Position numbers and translations under genes: made by a program. 64,000 nucleotides of DNA from a virus: positions 1 through 64,000 of the IMG/VR virus record IMGVR_UViG_3300042934_000547, one strand, 5' to 3'. Positions within the stretch are counted from its first letter, which is position 1. Each line of letters begins with the position of its first letter. Of the stretch, positions 5,598-55,344 are shown one piece after another. The notes below the pieces were generated by a model. The model did no database searches and had not been told where the DNA came from. It saw nothing but the letters and a program-made list of their open reading frames with translations.

Positions 5598-7172
5598 TCA
5601 AAATTGCATAGGTTGTAACTTCTCACTTGTGTAGGTCAAAGCATATACAGCATGTATTGCTTCATCCTTAGCTTGCCTAGAGTTTGTTCCTGTTAATCCG
5701 ATTAGATATTTCTTACTATGAATGTATGAACGTATTTCTTCATTTGCCTCATCAGTATATACACCTTTTACAGTTACCTGATCACCGTCGTAATCTCCGC
5801 CAATTGGTATAAGATGAAGATTAGAGAACCGTAATGTATCAATAAACATATTTGATGTATTTGTTCCTATATCCTCTTCATTTATTATCGGATATCTACT
5901 AAACTTACCAAGTCTATCAACTATTATGGATTTCTCAGTATGTTTTGTTGAAGATATGGAAACCTTAGTTGCAAATTGTCCAAAATGTGATTCTATAGGA
6001 TAACGGGTAATCGTTATATGACGATTTTTGACAGATTCTGAACAAGCCATAAAAATTATATCAATCCATAATAATTTACGGCTAATTACTCTACCATCTT
6101 CAGTTTTATAACGGATTTTTGGATGTATAATCTTACCATCTTCAGTTTCCACTGATACTGGAACCAATCGATTAGCGAATCCTTTTATGAATCTATCAAG
6201 TTCTTGCTTTAGTATGTAATCTGTAAATTGCCCATCAATACTTTTTAACCGTACAGGTTCTCCATTATACATCGCTTTATTATCTTCAAAGAATCTTCGT
6301 ATAATGAGTTTCATATTAAAGATATTAAACGGATAAAAAGCAACTGCTGTGGCAGCTAAAGGTACCGATGCTGTATATAAATCACATTCTAAATCATCGA
6401 CAGATTCAACGTTTACATCAGGACAAGTGATAACCAATCTAACTGCATAATCTGTAGTTTTACTCATACCAGCTCTGGCAGTAATACCACCCTTTTTAGC
6501 TAAATTAGGTTCTCTTGTAAACCAATCATATATTGCAACTAATAACGATTGTGTTCGATAGACTGTTGCACCATTCATATCCATTCCATAATCTATTAAG
6601 TCGGAAAGTGAATTGGAACTTATGATTAGTTTTGAGTAGAGTTTATTTATCTCACCAACACCGAATTTTCCATCGGCAGTATTAGCATCTCTAAAACCAG
6701 CAGGAATTACTATCCATTTATCAATAACTGCCAATTTGTCTTTAATCATTTTTTCAACGAATTTAATATTGATATCTCTCTTATTAGAATCCGTTGATTT
6801 AAATTTTATTTTATCTAAATTCTTAATAAGCCATTTGATTCCTGTGTTACCATTCTCAGCAGCTACGATATGACCGTTTTCATCAATTTTAAATGAACCT
6901 TGCTCAGCAATTATTTCATTAATTCTTCTATCCATTCTAGTCATTATGATATAAACTAGTGGATGTATAAATTGAGCTTTAAGATCGATATAAGCATATC
7001 TGTTTTTTCTGTCATTTATCGTAATTCCGAATATATCATTAGATAATAATCCATTAGGTGTCGGCAGATTATCCCTAACAAAATATACAGGATCGTAAAC
7101 TTCTTTTAAATTATTTAGTTTAATGAACTTATTCGTATCAAGTAAATTAAGAACTAAATTCTTCTGATTCAT
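5598..7172 (-). CDS. multisubunit RNA polymerase beta-prime-like subunit, N-terminal half (split beta-prime)
   Basis: GGDYDGDQV (5778-5795 region) matches the universal NADFDGDQM Mg-binding loop. TDYAVRLVI resembles VDYSGRSVI, GLLSNDIFG resembles GLFcErIFGP, and VIPAGFRD resembles PV.PPdlRP. The protein ends about 59 aa after the catalytic loop. The likely start is ATG 7172 behind AGGTGA; the track GTG at 7181 lies inside the RBS. Confidence 0.85.
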   Translation of the reverse strand: MNQKNLVLNLLDTNKFIKLNNLKEVYDPVYFVRDNLPTPNGLLSNDIFGITINDRKNRYAYIDLKAQFIHPLVYIIMTRMDRRINEIIAEQGSFKIDENGHIVAAENGNTGIKWLIKNLDKIKFKSTDSNKRDINIKFVEKMIKDKLAVIDKWIVIPAGFRDANTADGKFGVGEINKLYSKLIISSNSLSDLIDYGMDMNGATVYRTQSLLVAIYDWFTREPNLAKKGGITARAGMSKTTDYAVRLVITCPDVNVESVDDLECDLYTASVPLAATAVAFYPFNIFNMKLIIRRFFEDNKAMYNGEPVRLKSIDGQFTDYILKQELDRFIKGFANRLVPVSVETEDGKIIHPKIRYKTEDGRVISRKLLWIDIIFMACSESVKNRHITITRYPIESHFGQFATKVSISSTKHTEKSIIVDRLGKFSRYPIINEEDIGTNTSNMFIDTLRFSNLHLIPIGGDYDGDQVTVKGVYTDEANEEIRSYIHSKKYLIGLTGTNSRQAKDEAIHAVYALTYTSEKLQPMQF

Positions 7173-7476
7173 ACGCTTCACCTACTTTTATAATAATTTT
7201 ATTATTATTATGTTGTTGGGACACGCAGATTGGGTATATTTTATTGTATTTACTGATGTATGTCATATTAGAAATAGCATTCCAAAATATATTACACTCT
7301 GATGGATTAATGATATTTATAATAAACTCAACATGATTATCATTTTCATTTACTATAACTGAATCCGCAGAGTATGTCATAATTGAATTTACAACCATTA
7401 TTGATTCAAAAGTTTTTAAAATTAATGCTATCAAATCATCAGTATGAATTTTATTAACAAAATTAATCACATCCAT
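7147..7476 (-). CDS. hypothetical protein (109 aa)
   Basis: ORF with AGAGAGG RBS. Its 3' end overlaps the beta-prime start by 26 nt. Confidence 0.55.
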   Translation of the reverse strand: MDVINFVNKIHTDDLIALILKTFESIMVVNSIMTYSADSVIVNENDNHVEFIINIINPSECNIFWNAISNMTYISKYNKIYPICVSQQHNNNKIIIKVGEAYESEEFSS

Positions 7477-46986: not shown

Positions 46987-47664
46987 TTATTTCCATAAAG
47001 GGTTATCCTGAATTCTCATTGCTATGATCATATTTCTAACCATATCTTTAGTCATATCGATAGTGCCATCAGTGTTTCCTTTGATTATCCCTCTATCAAC
47101 AGCTTTCTGTATTTCGTCCTGATAGAACTTATCAAATTCGTCAATTTTCTTATATCTTTTATTTTCCTGCTCAAGTGTTGCTACTTTTTCTGCAAGTTCC
47201 TTAACTTGTTTAAGTAATTCATCCATAATAACCTCCATGTTATATATTGTTCCGACTTTTAAAGATGCGATATCATGATACACTAGTGGATTTATCCATA
47301 CATTAGATGTATTTCTAATACCATAATGAAGATGAGAGCCAAAACTGTAACCAGTATTACCCATAATTCCTATAGGCTGTCCAACTTTAACAATAGTGCC
47401 AACCTTTACCAATCTTGATGATAGGTGGCAGAAATAATGCTTGTGTTTATCAGGGGATTCTATTGCAACATAATTACCCCATTGCCAAGTGATGTTACCT
47501 CTATCTGTAATCATTTGGCTGGAGACTACTTTACCAGATACTGGAGATAACACGGTTATATCTCCAACCCCTACAAAATCTACTCCATGATGATAACTAC
47601 TGTCACCATTTTCTAAAATACGTGGACCAAATTTACTAGTTATTTTAAATTTCTTAAATAACAT
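46987..47664 (-). CDS. M23 (LytM/lysostaphin-type) metallopeptidase with C-terminal coiled coil
   Basis: YHHGVDF (HxxxD) and GNTGYSFGSHLHYGI (HxH). C-terminal LKQVKELAEKVATLEQENKRYKK is followed by an AVDRGIIKGNTDGT SLH-like motif. AAGGAGGTG RBS. Confidence 0.85.
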   Translation of the reverse strand: MLFKKFKITSKFGPRILENGDSSYHHGVDFVGVGDITVLSPVSGKVVSSQMITDRGNITWQWGNYVAIESPDKHKHYFCHLSSRLVKVGTIVKVGQPIGIMGNTGYSFGSHLHYGIRNTSNVWINPLVYHDIASLKVGTIYNMEVIMDELLKQVKELAEKVATLEQENKRYKKIDEFDKFYQDEIQKAVDRGIIKGNTDGTIDMTKDMVRNMIIAMRIQDNPLWK

Positions 47665-47701: not shown

Positions 47702-48535
47702 TTAATATTGATTTTCATATTGATGATATAATTCAGCCAACTTAATATCAACTTTTTGCCTTTCGGTCAATTTGTCGCTATTAAATCGTTCCTCAGATAT
47801 CAGTTGCCCATTTCCATCTTTGTTTTGAATAGTGAAATAAGCTTTAACATTAGTATTACACATATTCTCAACAATAATTTGGTGCTTATTAAAATAACCA
47901 GAAATAATATACTCTGTCATCAGATTTATATATTGGTCTCTTATAATATTATAATCAGCACTCACAAATCCAAATTCAATTCGTTTAAACCCCAGATTAA
48001 TTAGATTAGTTATACCTTCTTTTAAATATCCAATATTGAGTCTATTAATTGTAAAGTGGGCGATAGGATTACGCCCACTCTTAACGAAATTATTGATATT
48101 ATCAACAATATAATCATAAGACCCTTTCCCTGTTCTCATGATACGATTACTATTATGAGAAACTTTATTACCATCAATCGATATACATAGCAATATGTTA
48201 TACTTCTCAATGATGTCAATAACCCTATCTGAGTAAATAGTACCGTTAGTTGATGTGATGAATCTAAATTTATGATTTGGATAATTTGTCACAATATATT
48301 CACAAATATTTTCCAATCGATTTATAAACAGAAATGGCTCACCACCCAAAAATTCGACTGTAATTGTTCCAGCTGATGTCTTTTGCATACTGGTTTCAAA
48401 CGTCTGTATCATTTCTTCAAGTGTGATATCTAATAGATTATTCTCATCTTCTACGTTATTGTACACATAACAATATTTACATCGCATATTACACAACTTA
48501 GTTATATACAACGTTATATGACGAAGTTTATCCAT
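47702..48535 (-). CDS. radical SAM enzyme, core domain only (no SPASM Cys cluster)
   Basis: LYITKLCNMRCKYCYV (CxxxCxxC), FLGGEPF, and STNGT..D...I.ISIDG. The start shares one base with the upstream stop (TTAATG). Confidence 0.8.
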   Translation of the reverse strand: MDKLRHITLYITKLCNMRCKYCYVYNNVEDENNLLDITLEEMIQTFETSMQKTSAGTITVEFLGGEPFLFINRLENICEYIVTNYPNHKFRFITSTNGTIYSDRVIDIIEKYNILLCISIDGNKVSHNSNRIMRTGKGSYDYIVDNINNFVKSGRNPIAHFTINRLNIGYLKEGITNLINLGFKRIEFGFVSADYNIIRDQYINLMTEYIISGYFNKHQIIVENMCNTNVKAYFTIQNKDGNGQLISEERFNSDKLTERQKVDIKLAELYHQYENQY

Positions 48536-49659
48536 TAAAACTTTCCCTTCTGTATATTAAATTTCTTTGCTATGTTTTCATAACCAAGTTCATTTATATA
48601 TCTTTCAGATGCTTTATAAAAAATTTTCAGAGCTTTACATACACCATCGATTGGTTCGCATATATCCCTTTTACCTTGTTCCATTATGGCTGCAAAACAT
48701 TGTCCATAACAAACCTTATAAAGTTCACAATTTCGGCATTTTGGAGATATATCATGGGTGAAATTTTTATAAATATTAGCTACATTATGATTCTCATCAA
48801 TAGTAGTAAAAATGCTTCCCATCTTAGTACGCTCTAACCGACTATTAAAGAATCTTTGACATGGATATATATCACCGTTTGGTGCTATAGCAAGTATAGT
48901 TGACCCAGCGGTACAAAAATGCATTCTTTTCTCTCTTCTAGTATTGTAAGGAAGTAATAATCCATTATCATTAAATGCTTCATTAGAATTAAATTTTTCT
49001 ATTAAAAATGAAACATATTCATCATAAAATTTCTCTAGTCTTGCTAGATCATCATCAGACCATTCACAATCTCTTACAATACTTAAATTAGTTCGTCGAA
49101 ATCCATCATTTATAGAATCACGAATTCCATCCATGAGATAATCAATATTATCGGGTGCAATCATAGATTTAAAAATACGAGATCTAAGTGGAACATTATT
49201 TACCTTACAGTATGTTTTTATTGCTTTTAGACAGTCATCATAACTTCCTTTACCATTACTATAAACCCTACAACGGTCATGAGTAGTACGACCTCCATCT
49301 AATGACATACTGATTCGTATATCTTTATCTCTTAAATATATTAATTTCTCTTCATCTAACAAAGTTAAATTTGAGGTGGTCGCAATGGATATATTTACAT
49401 TTGGATGTAAACTTTGTACCATATTAATTTTATCAACAATTCTACAGAATTTATCCCATTCTAAAGTTGCTTCACCACCAAATAGATTAATATAAAAATA
49501 TTCTAAATTATTTTTAACGATGATATCATTAAAAAATGTTGGAAGTTGTTCAATAACATCATCAGTTATTGTTACGCCATTTTCCTTATCTACATAACAG
49601 TATTTACATCTTAAGTTACATTTTTCAGTAACTATAATAAGTATACTTTCAATCTTCAT
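48535..49659 (-). CDS. radical SAM / SPASM-domain enzyme
   Basis: VTEKCNLRCKYCYV, LFGGEATL, and the SPASM-type CTAGSTILAIAPNGDIYPCQRF ... CRNCELYKVCYGQC. AAGGAGAA RBS. Confidence 0.85.
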   Translation of the reverse strand: MKIESILIIVTEKCNLRCKYCYVDKENGVTITDDVIEQLPTFFNDIIVKNNLEYFYINLFGGEATLEWDKFCRIVDKINMVQSLHPNVNISIATTSNLTLLDEEKLIYLRDKDIRISMSLDGGRTTHDRCRVYSNGKGSYDDCLKAIKTYCKVNNVPLRSRIFKSMIAPDNIDYLMDGIRDSINDGFRRTNLSIVRDCEWSDDDLARLEKFYDEYVSFLIEKFNSNEAFNDNGLLLPYNTRREKRMHFCTAGSTILAIAPNGDIYPCQRFFNSRLERTKMGSIFTTIDENHNVANIYKNFTHDISPKCRNCELYKVCYGQCFAAIMEQGKRDICEPIDGVCKALKIFYKASERYINELGYENIAKKFNIQKGKF

Positions 49660-49690
49660 TACATTCTCCTTATTTTGTTAATCAATAATG

Positions 49691-49711
49691 AACATGGTAG
49701 CCTACCATGTT
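49691..49711 (-). terminator. hairpin between Cys-rich gene and downstream rSAM genes (attenuator/stabiliser?)
   Basis: AACATGGTAG-c-CTACCATGTT lies 29 nt after the stop of 49740..50141. There is no strong T-tract. Confidence 0.4.
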
Positions 49712-49739
49712 TAAGGTGTTAACTACACCCAACCCAATC

Positions 49740-50141
49740 TCAGGTGCATGTGCAGCAATCGCAATCACATGCACATCGATCACAAGTACATGCACATCGA
49801 TCACAGTCACAGTCACAGTCATTACAATTACATGAACAATAGTTATTATATATCGCAGTAGCAGCAGTTTGTGCTGCCGAAAAAATAGCTGGATAAATCA
49901 GTTTACCTGCTTCAAAGTTTATTAATGTACTTAAATCAGCTTTCGGATTGACATATGCATTAGCATTTGCTGCTGTTAAATTATTCTTAATTGATAAAAA
50001 TAATGCTGACATAACTTTCTGATTAGCTACAGCTGCCGTAGTATCAGCAGCTTGACCAACTCGTGTTCTGGCATTATTAACAGCAGTAACAACAGCAGTT
50101 CCATCAGCCGCCAATATCGCTGTACCTTTAGTTAACGCCAT
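49740..50141 (-). CDS. Ala/Thr-rich protein with extreme Cys/Asp C-terminal tail (candidate rSAM substrate)
   Basis: 133 aa. Residues 1-101 lack Cys. Residues 102-133 (CSCNCNDCDCDCDRCACTCDRCACDCDCCTCT) hold 15 Cys and 7 Asp. The start overlaps the upstream gene by 14 nt. Confidence 0.75.
   Translation of the reverse strand: MALTKGTAILAADGTAVVTAVNNARTRVGQAADTTAAVANQKVMSALFLSIKNNLTAANANAYVNPKADLSTLINFEAGKLIYPAIFSAAQTAATAIYNNYCSCNCNDCDCDCDRCACTCDRCACDCDCCTCT
49767..49820 (-). repeat. in-frame direct repeats inside the Cys-tail coding region
   Basis: The 18-nt ACATGCACATCGATCACA occurs twice (49767-49784 and 49788-49805, period 21 nt, encoding CDRCAC). It is followed by (ACAGTC)x3 at 49803-49820, encoding DCDCDC. 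Confidence 0.9.
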
Positions 50142-50451
50142 TTACACCACTCTCTTTCATAATAAAATCGATACTTTCATACACCATATCACTAATCGTA
50201 AACTTATAAATTCCATGTGAAATATTAGTGATATTCTTTATGATATTATCTCCAATTATAATTTTAACTGCCTCTACTGGTTTTTCCCTATAATATTGAT
50301 TTAGCACTTCTCCATTGATTCCTGCTAATTCATTAATAAGTCTAACTTGAACCACATCACTACTAAGGTTCATGAAAAATCCGATACCGTATGCCTTTTC
50401 GATTATGACATCTTCATCTTGATATTCGATTTTGATTTTTATATTGTCCAT
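50128..50451 (-). CDS. small Cys-free protein, paralog of upstream ORF (107 aa)
   Basis: KIKIEYQDEDVII.. and IIKNITNISHGIYKF parallel KIKILIDDVEVIV.. and AIKNITTIGFSDKF of 50453..50890. AAGGAGAC RBS. Confidence 0.65.
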   Translation of the reverse strand: MDNIKIKIEYQDEDVIIEKAYGIGFFMNLSSDVVQVRLINELAGINGEVLNQYYREKPVEAVKIIIGDNIIKNITNISHGIYKFTISDMVYESIDFIMKESGVNGVN

Positions 50452-50452
50452 A

Positions 50453-50890
50453 TTATTGGTCTCCTTTCAATGTGGAATTTACTAGTTTAGTATTAGAGAG
50501 AAACATTCTTTCATCAGAGTGATCCCTAAAATAATATATTGCATAACTTATACTCTTGATATCATGTATTTCATCATATACCAACCCAGCATCATCTAAT
50601 AATTTTACGGATATATTTTTATTATTTAATACTGCATTTTCAAGCATATCGAACTTATCACTAAATCCTATAGTGGTGATATTTTTAATTGCTAGGGAAT
50701 TTATTATCATTTCAGTTAAAGTCTTAGCAGTTTCTAGTGTTTCTTTTTTAAAATAAACACCTAATACTGCCGGAAATGATGGAAGTGTTGATTCTGATAA
50801 ACCTACTTCAGATATAACATCGAATACTATTACTTCAACATCATCAATCAGAATTTTGATCTTTGTCATGACAGTTACACTCTCTTTCAT
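50453..50890 (-). CDS. small Cys-free protein (145 aa; alternative start 50869)
   Basis: Overlaps the 3' end of the rSAM gene by 26-47 nt. Paralogous to 50128..50451. Confidence 0.6.
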   Translation of the reverse strand: MKESVTVMTKIKILIDDVEVIVFDVISEVGLSESTLPSFPAVLGVYFKKETLETAKTLTEMIINSLAIKNITTIGFSDKFDMLENAVLNNKNISVKLLDDAGLVYDEIHDIKSISYAIYYFRDHSDERMFLSNTKLVNSTLKGDQ

Positions 50891-52142
50891 TCATCATAAG
50901 TGAGAATTTTTCAGTCAATAACACTTCTTGTAACTCTAACAAATGTTGTAATGTCACGATTTGTCCTTCTGTAAAATTCTCACTCAGTAATCTTCCCATT
51001 TCCTGTAAAATAACAATAGAGTTTTTGTCAGGTTTATTTATTTTTCCGAATAATTCCTCATAAACATAAATTGACAATTCTTTCTCAATTTCTAAGAGTT
51101 TACAATTTTTTGGAAAACCATATGCAATGTTTCCATTATGATTATAATTAATAGCCATACAACTTCTACAATTATAATTATCACAGTCCGAACAAGCTTT
51201 ATATCCAATCATATATTTTCTATACAATTCTTCATATTGCACACATTTTGATTTATCAACCCCATCAAATACTGAACCGATTTTAGTATCTGGATCGGTT
51301 AAAAATCCATGACATGGATACACATCACCATTAGGGGTAATAGTGCAATATGATACTCCGGCACCACAGGATTTATCAGCACGTTTATCTTTATATTGTA
51401 ATGATGTAAATACATCATGTTCTTGAATACCATTAGTATTGCAATCGATGATAATATCATTTGCGATTTTTGTATATTCTCGTCTAAAGATATCGTAGTC
51501 ACTATCATCCCAGTCTTCTTCATGTAATGCCATGAACCATATTTTTTTAAATCCTAATTCATCTTTGAAAAATTTGTATGTCTTATGTGCGTATGGTAAT
51601 GTGGCTTTTGTTACAACACTATGCACTGATATTTTATTTTGCGGTACATTAATTCTATTAAATAAATCCCTTATCTTCTTTATAGAATTAATTATATTAT
51701 TAGAAGAACCTTTTCCATTTAAATCAATTCTTTGTAGGTCATTAATTTCAGGGATAGAATCAAATGAGATTTGAATAGAAAAACTTTCAGGGCTATTTGT
51801 CCACCAATTAATCAAGAATTGTTCATATTCATCACTATATAGAACTCCATTAGTGATTAATCCAGATGTGTATACCAGATTATTTTCCTTTGTTTTCATC
51901 ATAGCATAATTAAATATGTGGTTCATCACCTCAACATTTATAGTCGGTTCTCCACCAAAATATGTAATATCAATACCTTTCTTTTCATTCTCTAAAGCTT
52001 CATTAATCAAAAAATCAACAGCTTTTTCGGCTATTTCTTTTGTCATAAAGATTCCTTTACCTGTTCCCTTTTCAAAACAATAAGTACAATTTAAATTACA
52101 AGCATCTGTTAACATCACTGATGCACTTGTTAATCCTGACAT
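50844..52142 (-). CDS. radical SAM / SPASM-domain enzyme (anSME-like architecture)
   Basis: LTDACNLNCTYCFEKG, YFGGEPT, and the SPASM-type CGAGVSYCTITPNGDVYPCHGF ... CSDCDNYNCRSC. AAGGAGGAAAACA RBS. Confidence 0.85.
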   Translation of the reverse strand: MSGLTSASVMLTDACNLNCTYCFEKGTGKGIFMTKEIAEKAVDFLINEALENEKKGIDITYFGGEPTINVEVMNHIFNYAMMKTKENNLVYTSGLITNGVLYSDEYEQFLINWWTNSPESFSIQISFDSIPEINDLQRIDLNGKGSSNNIINSIKKIRDLFNRINVPQNKISVHSVVTKATLPYAHKTYKFFKDELGFKKIWFMALHEEDWDDSDYDIFRREYTKIANDIIIDCNTNGIQEHDVFTSLQYKDKRADKSCGAGVSYCTITPNGDVYPCHGFLTDPDTKIGSVFDGVDKSKCVQYEELYRKYMIGYKACSDCDNYNCRSCMAINYNHNGNIAYGFPKNCKLLEIEKELSIYVYEELFGKINKPDKNSIVILQEMGRLLSENFTEGQIVTLQHLLELQEVLLTEKFSLMMNERECNCHDKDQNSD

Positions 52143-52218
52143 TGTTTTCCTCCTTTATTTCAAGGTCTACACCTTGTATTCTTATAAAAATGTTTCAATT
52201 TGTTTTAAATAAAAGAAT

Positions 52219-52239
52219 GGGTTGGTATTATACCAACCC
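52219..52239 (-). terminator. intrinsic terminator ending the fibre operon
   Basis: GGGTTGGTA-tta-TACCAACCC sits immediately after the TAG of 52240..53253, followed on the minus strand by ATTCTTTTATTT. Confidence 0.75.
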
Positions 52240-53253
52240 CTATCTATTCATTATGAGAATCTCTATTAATTCTATTTCATCAGTAGTCTTATTTTGTAGA
52301 GATTTACCTACAATAGTACCGGGAATATTTTCTATCGATTTCATTCCTACACCTTCTATATCGGATGAAGTAATTAAATCTCCAATTTCTATCTTTCCAG
52401 TAATATATACTTTCAATCTACCAGCCAAACCAATAGGGATATAATTTTTCAAATTATCTTCATTTGATACGTCTTTATCCCCACCTAATAAGAATCCATA
52501 ATTGTCAGAAACAACACCTACTATCTTTTTAGAATTAGCTGATGATGAATAACAATATGTATTAGTGTCTGGTTCTAACTCGATAATATGATTAGGTTCG
52601 TAAGTGACATCTGGTTTATGTTTCTTAAATAACTCAGCGTAGTCATTCCATACAGCATTAGTTATTAAATCCCCTTCAATCCAGACTTTTTTCATTACAG
52701 CACCCATTGACCAACCACCAACAGCTAATGCATTACTCTTGTTTAACCCAAAATTTAATGCATATGCACCCGCTCGGTGAAATGATATAAAGGCGGCTGA
52801 TGCACTGTCTGAACGTATTTCTAGACCACCAGCTGCATATGCTGGTGAATAACTAACATCGGCACCACCAACAATTGCAGCTGTGAATAATCTACTACTA
52901 AGCGTTCCACCAGCAATGCCGTCTCTCCATAATGATTTATTTTTAAATCTGATATCAGTATTACCATTAGTTATTGATAATCCTACTGCTGGGAAATCAC
53001 TACTACCTTGTGCAACACCCCAAACGTTATTTGGGTCTGTGTAAATACCCCAAGCCTGAGTTTCTATTCCCTGAATATCAGCTGTTGGGGTTAATCCCAT
53101 GAGAATATCAGTCCAACCACCACTACTACTTTTAGATATTCTAATTCCTTCCTGATAATTATTTTCAGAAGGTTTAAGTATTAATCGTTTAAGATATGAA
53201 TTACCATTAACATTTAAGCTTCCATTTACAATAGTTGAATTTAACCTACCCAA
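52240..53253 (-). CDS. tail fibre/spike paralog P3 with conserved C-terminal chaperone-like domain
   Basis: N-terminal MGRLNSTIVNGSLNVNG and a C-terminal block of about 130 aa (ITNAVWNDYAELFKKH...VGVVSDNYGFLLGG...IPIGLAGR...GDLITSSDIEGVGMKS) are shared with P1/P2. TTG start behind GGGAGGTG. Confidence 0.7.
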   Translation of the reverse strand: MGRLNSTIVNGSLNVNGNSYLKRLILKPSENNYQEGIRISKSSSGGWTDILMGLTPTADIQGIETQAWGIYTDPNNVWGVAQGSSDFPAVGLSITNGNTDIRFKNKSLWRDGIAGGTLSSRLFTAAIVGGADVSYSPAYAAGGLEIRSDSASAAFISFHRAGAYALNFGLNKSNALAVGGWSMGAVMKKVWIEGDLITNAVWNDYAELFKKHKPDVTYEPNHIIELEPDTNTYCYSSSANSKKIVGVVSDNYGFLLGGDKDVSNEDNLKNYIPIGLAGRLKVYITGKIEIGDLITSSDIEGVGMKSIENIPGTIVGKSLQNKTTDEIELIEILIMNR

Positions 53254-53296
53254 TATTAAACACCTCCCGTCTCTATATTATAAATATTTATATTAT

Positions 53297-54229
53297 TTAG
53301 CAGTTCATAATCAATACATTGATCTTTTTTATATCTTCATTTAAATCAGTATCTAAGGCTTTAGCAATTATGGTTCCCTTAGGATTATCCAATTCCGATT
53401 TCATTCCTACACCTTCTATATGTGAAGATGTTATTAAATCTCCAGCCTCTATAGGTCCTATTACCCAAAGCTCAACTCTCCCTGCTAAACCAACGGGAAT
53501 ATATGTTTTTAAATTTTTCTCAGTAGATTGTTCTTCTCCACCAAGTAAGAATCCGTAACTATTTGATACAATACCTACTGCTAACTTAGAATTTGGAGTT
53601 GAAGAATATTTATACGTTTTGCTTTTTGGTTCTACTTCAATAATATGATGTGCTTCATAATTAACAGATGGATCGTGTTTCTTAAATAACTCGGCATAGT
53701 CATTCCACACAGCATTGGTTATCATATCACCAGCTAACCACGCACGTTTATTATATGATGGACCAGCAAGAATATCACCAGTTACATACAGTGGTTTATT
53801 TGTATGAAATCCAACGGTTGCATCAGTAACAAAATGACAATAACTTGTGTTTTCAGCACCAAAAGATGATGTACGACCACTTTTTAGTGATACTAGGTTG
53901 CCTTTTGATTCTACATTACTATTTCCTGTTATTTTACCAGCGACGATGTTTGCAGTACCAGTAGCACCACCAAACGTAAATTCGATTGGAATAGGTTTAC
54001 TATCCTTAGCCCTATAGCCAAAACGAATAGTACTCGCATTATTACTTCCACCAAAATTTATTTCATTATTATTTTCAATATATAATTTTACATTACCTAC
54101 AACACCCTCACCTGCCATTAATCCGTTTTTGCTATATAAAGCCCCATTCACATTTACATCACTACTTAAATGAGTCTTTCCGCTAACGTTTAAACTCCCA
54201 TTTATAACAGTTGAATTTAATCTACCCAA
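53297..54229 (-). CDS. tail fibre/spike paralog P2
   Basis: Same N- and C-terminal blocks with a divergent middle. TTG start behind AAGAGGTG, in an identical GGTGTTTAATATTGGGTAG context. Confidence 0.7.
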   Translation of the reverse strand: MGRLNSTVINGSLNVSGKTHLSSDVNVNGALYSKNGLMAGEGVVGNVKLYIENNNEINFGGSNNASTIRFGYRAKDSKPIPIEFTFGGATGTANIVAGKITGNSNVESKGNLVSLKSGRTSSFGAENTSYCHFVTDATVGFHTNKPLYVTGDILAGPSYNKRAWLAGDMITNAVWNDYAELFKKHDPSVNYEAHHIIEVEPKSKTYKYSSTPNSKLAVGIVSNSYGFLLGGEEQSTEKNLKTYIPVGLAGRVELWVIGPIEAGDLITSSHIEGVGMKSELDNPKGTIIAKALDTDLNEDIKKINVLIMNC

Positions 54230-54276
54230 TATTAAACACCTCTTTTCGAGCTGAAATGATAGATTTTATCTATATT

Positions 54277-55344
54277 TTATCCAGCCATAATTAAAACATT
54301 TACTTTCTTTATATCTTCATTTGGATTGGTTTCTAAGGCTTTTCCTATTATCGTTCCTTTAATCTTTAACTCTGATTTCATTCCCACACCTTCTATATCT
54401 GATGAAGTAATTAAATCTCCAGCACGTATTGGTCCGGTTACCCATACTTTAACTCTTCCAGCTAAGCCTATAGGGATAAAATTTTCTAAGTTCTCTTCAT
54501 TGGTTTTGTTTTCTTCTCCACCAAGTAAGAATCCATAGTTATCAGAAACCACTCCTACTAATAATTCCGAATTAGCTTTGGAAGAATATTTATATGTATT
54601 AGTATGAGGATCTAGCTCGATGATATAACCAGCCTCATAATCCTTATTATCATGTTTTTCAAATAACTCAGCATAGTCGTTCCATACTGCATTAGTTATC
54701 AAATCACCAGCCAACCATACACGCTTACTTGATTGAGCATATATATCGCCCTTAACAAATAATCTACCAGTATTTGAACCCAATGTCATCATTGTGACTG
54801 GATTATCAGCACCAGCATTACTACGTGATTCCCATGACCATCCATACCCTGTTGAATTTTCTACAATCTGTCTTATAGCCCATGATGATACATCACCTAA
54901 AGCTACACCAGCACCACCACCCGGGGCAGCACCAGTGATTGGTAACATAAATATTCGCCAAGTTTTTTCATAACCGGCACTATAGAATCTAATTCCGCTG
55001 GCTGCTCCTCCTGCATTAAAACTTAAACCACCAACGAGTGTAGCATTGTTTGCAATTAACCCAGCACTTCCACCTGAACCACCGAATACAAAGGAGCTAG
55101 GGATAGGTTTACTATCCTTAGCTCTATATCCAAAATAAATAGTACTTAAGGCATTACTCCCGCCAAAATTAACTTCAGAATTAAATTCAGGATATATTTT
55201 CATCAATTCATTGTATCCCGGCTGGTCAGTAGTAAATCCACTATTTCCATGCACTGTGCCTGATACATCTAAATTATTTCTTATATATGCCTTACCATTA
55301 ACAGTTAGAGTTCCATTTATAATGGTTGAGTTTAATCTACCCAT
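54277..55344 (-). CDS. tail fibre/spike paralog P1
   Basis: Same N- and C-terminal blocks with a Gly-rich divergent middle. ATG behind GGAAGTGA. Confidence 0.7.
   Translation of the reverse strand: MGRLNSTIINGTLTVNGKAYIRNNLDVSGTVHGNSGFTTDQPGYNELMKIYPEFNSEVNFGGSNALSTIYFGYRAKDSKPIPSSFVFGGSGGSAGLIANNATLVGGLSFNAGGAASGIRFYSAGYEKTWRIFMLPITGAAPGGGAGVALGDVSSWAIRQIVENSTGYGWSWESRSNAGADNPVTMMTLGSNTGRLFVKGDIYAQSSKRVWLAGDLITNAVWNDYAELFEKHDNKDYEAGYIIELDPHTNTYKYSSKANSELLVGVVSDNYGFLLGGEENKTNEENLENFIPIGLAGRVKVWVTGPIRAGDLITSSDIEGVGMKSELKIKGTIIGKALETNPNEDIKKVNVLIMAG

Follow-up and report, generated by a model that had tools for sequence, protein, structure and literature searches.

A candidate radical-SAM protein-maturation cassette paired with a Cys-heptad protein in a jumbo phage

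Introduction

In a 64,000-nucleotide stretch of viral DNA (IMG/VR record IMGVR_UViG_3300042934_000547, positions 1 to 64,000; hereafter the window) three radical S-adenosylmethionine (radical-SAM, rSAM) enzymes are encoded together with a 133-amino-acid (aa) protein that ends in a dense run of cysteines. The locus raises the question of what these enzymes act on, by what chemistry, and where the product goes. Among the genes of the window, which belongs to a jumbo phage, are those for the beta subunit of a phage multisubunit RNA polymerase, for a primase and a ribonucleotide reductase, and for virion proteins; an identical 133-aa protein is present on a 232-kb Joint Genome Institute (JGI) contig. 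On balance we lean towards a phage radical-SAM protein-maturation system with the 133-aa protein as its substrate, thioether-type crosslinks as its chemistry and a product that is probably virion-associated.

Six co-directional and coupled genes had been noted at this position in an earlier, sequence-only reading, and all six were recovered as minus-strand open reading frames (ORFs) spanning 47702–52142, in the order rSAM-A, small1, small2, Cys-rich gene, rSAM-B and rSAM-C (Table 1). They abut or overlap with the exception of an 80-nt gap 3' of the Cys-rich gene. Apart from the Cys tail, CX3CX2C motifs in the window are confined to the three radical-SAM enzymes, which were likewise the only hits of a radical-SAM core profile, and no other ORF of the window comes near the 133-aa protein in Cys density.

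Results and Discussion

The enzymes group with peptide maturases

Profile comparison placed all three enzymes among the peptide-modifying radical-SAM/SPASM maturases and none among the nucleotide-, cofactor- or tRNA-modifying families. Each carries the CX3CX2C motif that had been read from the sequence (CNLNCTYC, CNLRCKYC and CNMRCKYC) and exceeds the Pfam gathering cut-off for Radical_SAM (PF04055, 29.5 bits), at 46.6 bits for rSAM-A, 50.6 for rSAM-B and 58.4 for rSAM-C. The two larger enzymes also hold the GDxYPC motif (GDVYPC and GDIYPC) and the auxiliary Cys earlier ascribed to them, arranged as CX2CX5CX2C in rSAM-A and as a full CX2CX5CX3C in rSAM-B. Against the SPASM model (PF13186, cut-off 21.5 bits) rSAM-B scored 26.4 bits and rSAM-A 20.3 bits, marginally under the cut-off with the Cys pattern visible. 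No PF13186 match was obtained for rSAM-C, which has six Cys, no SPASM domain and no auxiliary Cys and is thus the core-only enzyme that it had been taken for.

The best NCBIfam model for each enzyme was the PapB ranthipeptide maturase (NF047865), with 194.2, 188.5 and 130.8 bits for A, B and C, the alignment of rSAM-C spanning model positions 2–213 only; the cut-off of 340 bits was reached by none of them. The runner-up models were those of SCIFF, CXXX-repeat, nif11, Cys-every-fifth and other peptide maturases, and in fact the top 20 or more profile matches of every enzyme were peptide maturases. Scores for the SCIFF maturase (TIGR03974) were 153, 115 and 80 bits against a cut-off of 425, and for the CXXX-repeat maturase (TIGR04115) 127, 119 and 116 bits against 350, so that the enzymes fall outside both. 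The nearest solved structure was in all three cases CteB (5WGG; 122, 103 and 66 bits for A, B and C). As these alignments begin at CteB residue 97–102 (102 for rSAM-A, 97 for rSAM-B), and the phage enzymes start 4–10 residues ahead of that point, they lack the N-terminal RiPP (peptide made by ribosomes and modified after translation) recognition element (RRE) of about 95 aa, which is the substrate-binding domain of CteB. Given the scores below cut-off and the missing RRE, the enzymes appear to be ranthipeptide/sactipeptide-synthase-like and are not members of the PapB and SCIFF equivalogs.

The Cys-rich protein belongs to a large family of heptad proteins

The composition reported for the tail, 15 Cys and 7 Asp in the last 32 residues, was confirmed. 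The tail had also been described as an alternation of C-D and C-x-C; a Cys-rich repeat is indeed present, and its unit is not a simple C-D alternation but a heptad, C-x-C-x-C-x-x, of which there are 4.5 (CSCNCND CDCDCDR CACTCDR CACDCDC CTCT). This tail aligns with P0002 (P numbers denote family proteins and L numbers loci) and with other family members.

A single-sequence search with the 133-aa protein returned only itself and P0002, a protein 59% identical in this search and encoded on a 246-kb viral contig, L001. IMG/VR scans with single cassette proteins likewise found only this sister contig, and no match was obtained when the locus (blastn) and the 133-aa protein (tblastn) were compared with 50,697 cultured-phage records, probably because the heptads are masked as low complexity. 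Further loci were reached through homologs of rSAM-B, below which there is a gap until SCIFF maturases appear at roughly 28% identity. A profile of five heptad proteins then retrieved 472 cluster representatives at 90% identity, and an exhaustive hidden Markov model (HMM) search of 1.84 billion representatives gave 484 at E <= 1e-3 and 283 at E <= 1e-10, for a family size of about 480 clusters at 50% identity. Judged by these profiles, this is an uncurated family that combines a three-helix N-domain with tandem heptads and that includes the window protein: its N-domain alone scored 52 bits against a family profile from which it had been left out, compared with at most 9.7 bits for 200 shuffles, and the whole protein reached E = 9e-52 in the family search.

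The heptad consensus, drawn from 1243 units, reads C-[T 67%/S 11%]-C-[N 60%/D 28%]-C-[N 84%/D 10%]-[Y 82%/H/R], with an extra single A, S or G in one third of the units and up to 17 near-identical heptads per protein. The non-Cys positions are conserved to the same degree as the Cys. No Pfam or NCBIfam model exists for the N-domain or the heptads, and the family is therefore invisible to annotation pipelines and RiPP miners; one PHROG, phrog_26958 (function unknown), matches the heptads. Two or three separate heptad arrays or long extra domains occur in P0242, P0243, P0245 and P0327, so the heptad module is reused inside larger proteins.

AlphaFold2 (AF2) modelling with a 36-sequence alignment gave helices at residues 11–27, 45–61 and 84–100 of the N-domain with a predicted local distance difference test (pLDDT) score of about 80. 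Foldseek comparison of this model with the PDB yielded no informative match (best E = 1.4), and comparison with BFVD only uncharacterised phage proteins (best E = 0.016).

The distribution of the system was addressed with a degenerate DNA pattern encoding CNCNYCTC[ND]CNY. It matched 47 IMG/VR contigs of 20–214 kb and, among 185,579 prokaryotic species genomes (one per species), only 2 contigs, both from metagenome bins; the system is accordingly essentially virus-restricted. No description of it was found in the full-text literature, heptad strings included. The earlier reading knew of no described phage system with this architecture; the system is indeed undescribed, and it is not unique to this phage, being a large family that extends to sequenced Campylobacter phages.

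Heptad proteins and radical-SAM genes occur together

In the sister phage L001 the same order A-small1-small2-substrate-B-C is found, with identities to the window of 65% for A, 35% for small1, 56% for small2, 57% for the heptad protein, 68% for B and 59% for C. The L001 cassette lies between ThyA (thymidylate synthase)/DHFR and a 5'-3' exonuclease; the same six genes in a different neighbourhood indicate that the cassette moves as a unit. As both the tail and the whole gene order are kept in this second jumbo phage at 57–68% protein identity (small1 35%), a chance origin of the cassette is, on this comparison of sequences, taken as excluded.

The pairing extends well beyond L001. In L004/5, L006 and L007 the Cys-repeat protein sits amid 4–5 radical-SAM genes or domains, often with an A-type enzyme plus one or two small proteins ahead of it. 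The heptad proteins of L006, L007, L012 and L013 are flanked by orthologs of A, B and C, and L004 has B together with a C-B fusion. Six further family members picked for diversity were each found next to radical-SAM genes, namely P0128 (7), P0167 (3), P0187 (6), P0184 (7), P0144 (3–4) and P0142 (8). Around the heptad proteins of L010, L015, L016 and L017 the number is 3–8. Overall, both a Cys-rich ORF and 3–8 adjacent radical-SAM genes were present in every one of the distinct loci read (11/11). The loci fetched with the DNA pattern contain 131 radical-SAM-core ORFs in 443 kb, at least one in 38 of 47 and at least three in 26 of 47; of the nine without any, most are short stretches, and two belong to phages of the Campylobacter type with dispersed radical-SAM genes. 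The pairing of substrate and enzymes is conserved. Neither of two outcomes that the earlier reading had named as speaking against it, enzymes placed in families without peptide substrates or relatives keeping radical-SAM genes but no Cys-rich ORF, was observed in the profile searches and the loci read.

Among the relatives, rSAM-A is always the first gene of the cassette, with orthologs at 34–65% identity in L001, L006, L007, L012 and L013, while orthologs of rSAM-B were found in seven loci at 31–68% identity. Those of rSAM-C are found in L001, L012, L013 and L007, and in L004 the enzyme is fused to a B-like domain. This natural fusion of a core-only C-type with a B-like SPASM enzyme, 633 aa in length (L004:3078-4979 and L005:3170-5074), suggests that C and B work together physically.

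The small proteins are less well defined. The position of small1 after rSAM-A is conserved in relatives, and neither small1 nor small2 matched any Pfam, NCBIfam, PHROG or PDB entry. They had been called paralogs, a claim that found no support (BLASTP E of about 0.02; hhalign profile-profile probability 8.9%). The single-sequence AF2 model of small2 had a pLDDT of 41 and was unusable. We propose small1 as an adaptor or chaperone.

This body of evidence bears on the possibility that the genes are coincidental neighbours, the enzymes modifying DNA bases, nucleotides, sugars or cofactors and the Cys-rich protein being unrelated to them. Sugar-nucleotide and glycosyltransferase genes do occur in several loci (L010, L015, L016, CP220), metabolic roles were proposed by Timms et al. 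for the radical-SAM genes of Campylobacter phages (PMC2853527), and phage radical-SAM enzymes are known from DNA hypermodification (PMC8989533). The profile matches to peptide maturases, the tight translational coupling to the Cys protein and the persistence of the pairing across loci with wholly different other neighbours nevertheless leave this explanation with hardly any credence.

Several loci carry additional genes of note. Directly after the heptad cassette of L001 (L001:12458-17269) lie a 603-aa CXXX-type radical-SAM enzyme and two CXXX-repeat proteins of 551 and 421 aa with faint PF27846 matches, so that two different Cys-repeat/radical-SAM systems stand side by side; the 64-kb window has no counterpart. 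In L007 and L008 a gene of the Acb2/Tad1-hairpin family, an anti-CBASS/anti-Thoeris sponge family, follows right after a five-enzyme cassette (L007:6908-7264 and L008:10069-10425). Genes for UDP-glucose dehydrogenase, family-2 glycosyltransferase, carbamoyltransferase and sugar epimerase are interleaved with radical-SAM genes in several loci (L010, L015, L016), and in CP220 a UDP-glucose dehydrogenase gene (L014:5693-6463) is found about 1.5 kb upstream of a radical-SAM gene; the heptad protein may also be glycosylated or further decorated.

C-termini and neighbours hint at a possible virion role

The C-termini of the family suggest a link to virion appendages. Among the best 120 family members, 44 pass from the last ...CNCNY straight into SDxRLK, the start of Peptidase_S74, and some carry the full S74 domain, as does P0149 (PF13884, 23.6 bits against a cut-off of 22). 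Peptidase_S74 is the trimerising, self-cleaving intramolecular chaperone of tail fibres and spikes. Another 22 of these 120 stop at most three residues after the last repeat Cys, mostly at ...CNCNY, which from the sequences would be the same C-terminus that S74 cleavage leaves. A stub of 14 residues, NYSD(E/I/K)RLKxNIxY(M/L/I) followed by the stop codon, closes P0127, P0151, P0159, P0192 and many other members; it comprises the first S74 strand only and may be a remnant, a docking tag for S74 in trans or the product of a split gene.

A second type of ending is the Hint domain, which closes the proteins of L004, L005 and L006 as well as P0248, P0254, P0278, P0283 and P0316 and begins with its catalytic Cys immediately behind the repeats. 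The score of the L004 protein exceeds the PF14890 cut-off, and the scores for L006 and P0278 lie just below the cut-off of Hint_2. P0002 (L001:10001-10390) ends ...CDCDQC-GLVIGDN and its Hint-bearing relatives ...(I/V)(I/V)GDG(N/F/Y).., so that the end of P0002 looks like a Hint domain collapsed to its first Cys and last strand. Both S74 and Hint remove themselves, which implies a mature C-terminus fixed at the end of the Cys stalk; S74 implies a trimer in addition. Members with neither domain often close with a brief acidic stretch whose last residue is aromatic, such as ..SEDDW, ..IHPEW, ..ESPGW, ..FADEW, ..DDAMF or ..QHDF (P0123, P0124, P0125, P0126, P0130, P0187, P0205). This ending may be a conserved C-terminal docking motif; the window protein does not have it.

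Genes for tail-fibre or spike-like proteins lie next to the cassette in the window and in L006, L010 and L013. A further connection, found via a PHROG match and a long family member, leads to the Campylobacter phages, where CP220 gp140 (CPT_0180, 534 aa) and its homolog in IBB_35, gene 3-9, hold seven CTCDCNY heptads. Timms et al. termed the 11–12 radical-SAM genes of CP220 and CPt10 'highly unusual' and noted an in-frame 21-bp repeat without connecting it to those genes (PMC2853527). The product of IBB_35 gene 3-9 (60.3 kDa, 'no homologs') was among 38 proteins detected in purified virions by ESI-MS/MS, with 2.6% coverage (PMC3322345). In CP220 the radical-SAM neighbourhood at gp023 contains no Cys-rich ORF, the heptad gene lying elsewhere in the genome.

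The sequence-only reading had suggested a virion or host-surface-acting component rather than a secreted bacteriocin. The S74- and Hint-bearing relatives, the fibre neighbours, the virion protein of IBB_35 and the absence of any Pfam-annotated ABC exporter or typical leader peptidase from the inspected loci lend this indirect support. The same observations weigh on the proposal that the modified tail, either alone or still joined to the N-domain, is a soluble RiPP-like effector set free at lysis. Such an effector would target other cells or host defences, whether as toxin, antimicrobial, signal or anti-defence agent, and would not belong to the virion. The enzymes do come from ranthipeptide- and sactipeptide-making families, the precursor is followed by a hairpin as in RiPP operons, the L001 cassette lies among early or metabolic genes, that of L007/L008 adjoins the Acb2/Tad1-like anti-defence gene, and the window protein is an Asp-rich variant with no fibre-type C-terminal domain. 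Yet immunity genes are also missing from every inspected locus, the N-domain of about 100 aa is a conserved folded domain, many relatives have S74 chaperones and tail-fibre neighbours, a Campylobacter phage relative was detected in virions, and the hairpin is not conserved. We therefore consider a released effector unlikely.

Proposed mechanism

Very probably the enzymes act on the 133-aa protein. In the mechanism that we propose, its helical N-domain would serve as the recognition handle and the heptad tail as the part that is modified. As the enzymes lack an RRE, recognition of the N-domain would probably fall to small1 and small2 or to the extension of about 90 residues on rSAM-A. In the manner of CteB and PapB, the enzymes would abstract hydrogen from residues interleaved between the cysteines, that is Asp, Asn, Thr and Ser in this phage and, in the family consensus, Thr at position 2 and Asn/Asp at positions 4 and 6. 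Joining of Cys sulfur to those carbons would turn each C-x-C-x-C-x-x into a set of thioether staples of the ranthipeptide/sactipeptide type. Known ranthipeptide acceptors are Thr for CteB, Asp for PapB and Asn for NxxC peptides, and from its sequence the heptad can be read as three Cys plus three residues of such acceptor types. That the links are thioethers is likely in our view. Minimal cassettes (window, L001 and L012) have exactly three enzymes, and we accordingly propose that A, B and C would each install one kind of thioether per heptad, with the heptad position or the carbon (alpha, beta or gamma) setting each enzyme's share.

The repeats could instead form a metal or iron-sulfur array, the C-x-C-x-C heptads binding metal in a metallothionein-like manner or within a trimer like the HxH iron sites of T4 gp37, and the radical-SAM enzymes performing some other modification or depending on the array to donate clusters or act as a scaffold. 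Metal-thiolate proteins typically show Cys-x-Cys spacing, Cys would line an axis in the trimers that the S74-type relatives imply, the tail has no intrinsic fold in the AF2 model, and radical-SAM enzymes have a high Fe-S demand. Metal binding, however, needs no enzymes, whereas 3–8 genes resembling peptide maturases are present in every inspected locus; moreover the non-Cys positions are as conserved as the Cys and of known thioether-acceptor types, and no Fe-S assembly genes (Nif/Isc/Suf-like) were seen in the loci. Such an array appears improbable.

In the stapling mechanism the product would be neither cut from a leader nor exported, and the tail would become a densely stapled rod. The result would be a small protein whose Cys-derived stalk is rigid and resists protease and redox attack. 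This protein would most likely be a minor component, in the virion or associated with fibres, that is assembled late, next to the products of the tail-fibre genes, and released at lysis. A place for the product in or on the virion is a possibility to which we hold tentatively. More doubtful is the wider generalisation that in large phages, as a dedicated system found only in viruses, batteries of 3–8 radical-SAM enzymes covalently staple the Cys-heptad stalk of a small, probably trimeric virion fibre protein, which would constitute a new crosslink category and in which staples may run between chains.

A number of observations weigh against maturation by thioether crosslinking and against a virion role. 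All three enzymes score far under the PapB, SCIFF and CXXX equivalog cut-offs, so their reaction could differ, and the absence of an auxiliary cluster from rSAM-C is unusual for thioether synthases. No RRE or PqqD signal was detected in the small proteins by Pfam (13 members of two alignments) or in a PDB profile search. AF2 predicts the Cys tail to be disordered. Neither an S74 nor a Hint domain is present in the window protein, which ends ...CDCDCCTCT with a tail rich in Asp where the consensus has Asn/Tyr, and which may therefore have diverged in role. In L001 the cassette is located among nucleotide-metabolism genes and not among fibre genes. Finally, the detection of the IBB_35 relative in virions rests on 2.6% sequence coverage (PMC3322345) and bears only indirectly on the window protein, since the two share the heptad module alone, the N-terminal part of the relative scoring 10.7 bits, no better than shuffles.

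Gene layout and transcription

Coordinates of the cassette, its flanking genes and the predicted hairpins are collected in Table 1.

Table 1. Features of the cassette and its surroundings (window coordinates)
Feature	Position	Strand	Description
rSAM-A	50844..52142	-	radical-SAM/SPASM enzyme, 432 aa, C-terminal extension of ~90 aa
small1	50453..50890	-	Cys-free protein, 145 aa as listed; likelier start ATG at 50866 (MTKIKIL), giving 137 aa
small2	50128..50451	-	Cys-free protein, 107 aa
Cys-rich protein (putative substrate)	49740..50141	-	133 aa
N-terminal domain of Cys-rich protein	49839..50141	-	residues 1-101, three predicted helices
Cys-heptad tail	49743..49838	-	residues 102-133
rSAM-B	48535..49659	-	radical-SAM/SPASM enzyme, 374 aa
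rSAM-C	47702..48535	-	radical-SAM core only, 277 aa; start overlaps rSAM-B stop
Neighbouring lysin, M23 peptidase with SLH domain	46987..47664	-	Peptidase_M23 73 bits, SLH 23.2 bits
Three paralogous tail-fibre-like genes directly upstream of cassette	52240..55344	-	PHROG tail protein and pre-neck appendage matches
Intrinsic terminator closing the upstream tail-fibre genes	52219..52239	-	9-bp stem, 5 GC pairs, T-run
Hairpin in rSAM-A leader	52161..52176	-	6 bp, weak; significance doubtful
Hairpin in 80-nt gap after Cys-rich gene	49691..49711	-	9 bp, weak U tract

The terminator after which the cassette had been said to start is strong by folding energy (-17.7 kcal/mol, z = -4.9, with 0 of 200 shuffles folding equally well). 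The hairpin thought to cover the first ribosome-binding site proved weak (z = -2.3; 5 of 200 shuffles fold as well) and ends 6 nt upstream of the AAGGAGG Shine-Dalgarno sequence instead of lying over it. The third hairpin, in the gap after the Cys-rich gene, does exist and is a possible partial terminator or attenuator. It had been likened to the precursor-attenuator layout of RiPP operons; the sister phage L001, with a gap of only 11 nt, does not conserve it, so we do not count this idea as evidence.

A scan of the window for sigma-70-type promoters found 40 where 43 were expected. The phage encodes its own RNA polymerase (beta subunit at 5598-7181; phrog_2986, 255 bits), hence late genes are probably transcribed by the phage polymerase and such scans are uninformative here.

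Downstream, the M23-SLH lysin gene comes next, as earlier described, and is treated here as a neighbour of the cassette. The gene at 45748-46194 matches phrog_335 only (annotated 'phosphatase'), and its counterpart in L004 is a Macro domain (PF01661). A Macro-type gene and an M23 lysin thus lie downstream of the radical-SAM genes both in the window and in L004 (L004:4995-6110), as local synteny between otherwise diverged phages. The three fibre paralogs upstream share the N-terminus MGRLNST(I/V)(I/V)NG(S/T)LNV(N/S)G and a conserved C-terminal region (AVWNDYAELF...GFLLGG...GLAGR) with a match to the PHROG of the phi29 pre-neck appendage. Compared by eye, the fibre genes of the window and of L010 look similar at their C-terminal ends, and faint Peptidase_G2 (Pfam) marks were seen on the fibre genes of L010 and L013.

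Significance

The family amounts to a modular natural substrate, in which near-identical heptads each offer three Cys and three candidate acceptors to several RRE-less enzymes. It suits the dissection of regio- and chemoselectivity and possibly the engineering of hyper-crosslinked scaffolds. It also links two published curiosities, the 11–12 radical-SAM genes of Campylobacter phages and the gene with the in-frame 21-bp repeat. Should the proposed mechanism be true, it would represent a new class of enzyme-installed crosslinks in virus particles and account for the long-noted surplus of radical-SAM genes in CP220/CPt10 and similar phages, giving a testable reason for the presence of a dozen of them in one phage. 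One implication is that certain phages may use radical chemistry, which works only under low oxygen, to harden a virion appendage; this would tie particle maturation to anaerobic host physiology.

Comparison with known systems

The closest described systems are PapA/PapB (freyrasin) and CteA/CteB (SCIFF), in which radical-SAM/SPASM enzymes likewise act on a Cys-rich substrate; PapB is the best profile and CteB the nearest structure, and Asp, Asn and Thr are interleaved with Cys in the phage tail as at the known acceptor sites. The phage enzymes differ in scoring 131–194 bits against the PapB cut-off of 340, in lacking the N-terminal RRE of CteB and in including one enzyme, rSAM-C, with no auxiliary cluster. 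Three to eight enzymes serve the phage substrate where known systems have one. The substrates differ as well, those of the phage family having 100–700 aa with a folded N-domain and tandem heptads, whereas PapA and CteA are peptides of 40–50 aa. Furthermore, the phage system is encoded by viruses, and Pfam annotated no exporter or leader peptidase in the loci inspected.

The CXXX-repeat/radical-SAM system (TIGR04115, TIGR04119; target PF27846) resembles the phage system in its tandem short Cys repeat as presumed substrate, in the presence of TIGR04115 among the top models (116–127 bits) and in the CXXX-type enzyme with two repeat proteins that directly follows the heptad cassette of L001. To our knowledge its chemistry has not been determined. 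The phage repeat has a period of 7 with three Cys as opposed to a period of 4 with one, the phage enzymes score under the cut-off of 350, and the N-domain is different.

The Campylobacter group II phages (CP220, CPt10, CP21 and IBB_35; 11–12 radical-SAM genes) share the 534-aa heptad protein (phrog_26958) with its seven CTCDCNY and SPASM radical-SAM genes about 24% identical to rSAM-B. Their radical-SAM genes are dispersed, in contrast to the compact cassette of the window, and the N-terminal part of their heptad protein is unrelated; the published work on these phages drew no link between the repeat protein and the radical-SAM genes.

With S74 fibres and tailspikes (endosialidases, T5 pb1) the family has in common that about a third of its best members continue after the last heptad into SDxRLK or a full S74 domain, an ending that implies a trimeric fibre-like stalk and self-cleavage. 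The window protein itself lacks S74, and known stalks are triple beta-helices or coiled coils with neither Cys repeats nor dedicated modifying enzymes. Hint and bacterial intein-like domains are matched by the several family members that end in Hint with the canonical Cys right after the repeats, and are absent from the window protein.

The enzymes are thus of a known kind, radical-SAM/SPASM peptide maturases, and the system as a whole does not match any described class. Features that appear new, as read from sequence comparison, are the virus-only distribution, the protein-sized substrate with a folded N-domain, the period-7 triple-Cys repeats, the 3–8 RRE-less enzymes per substrate and the S74 or Hint self-processing ends.

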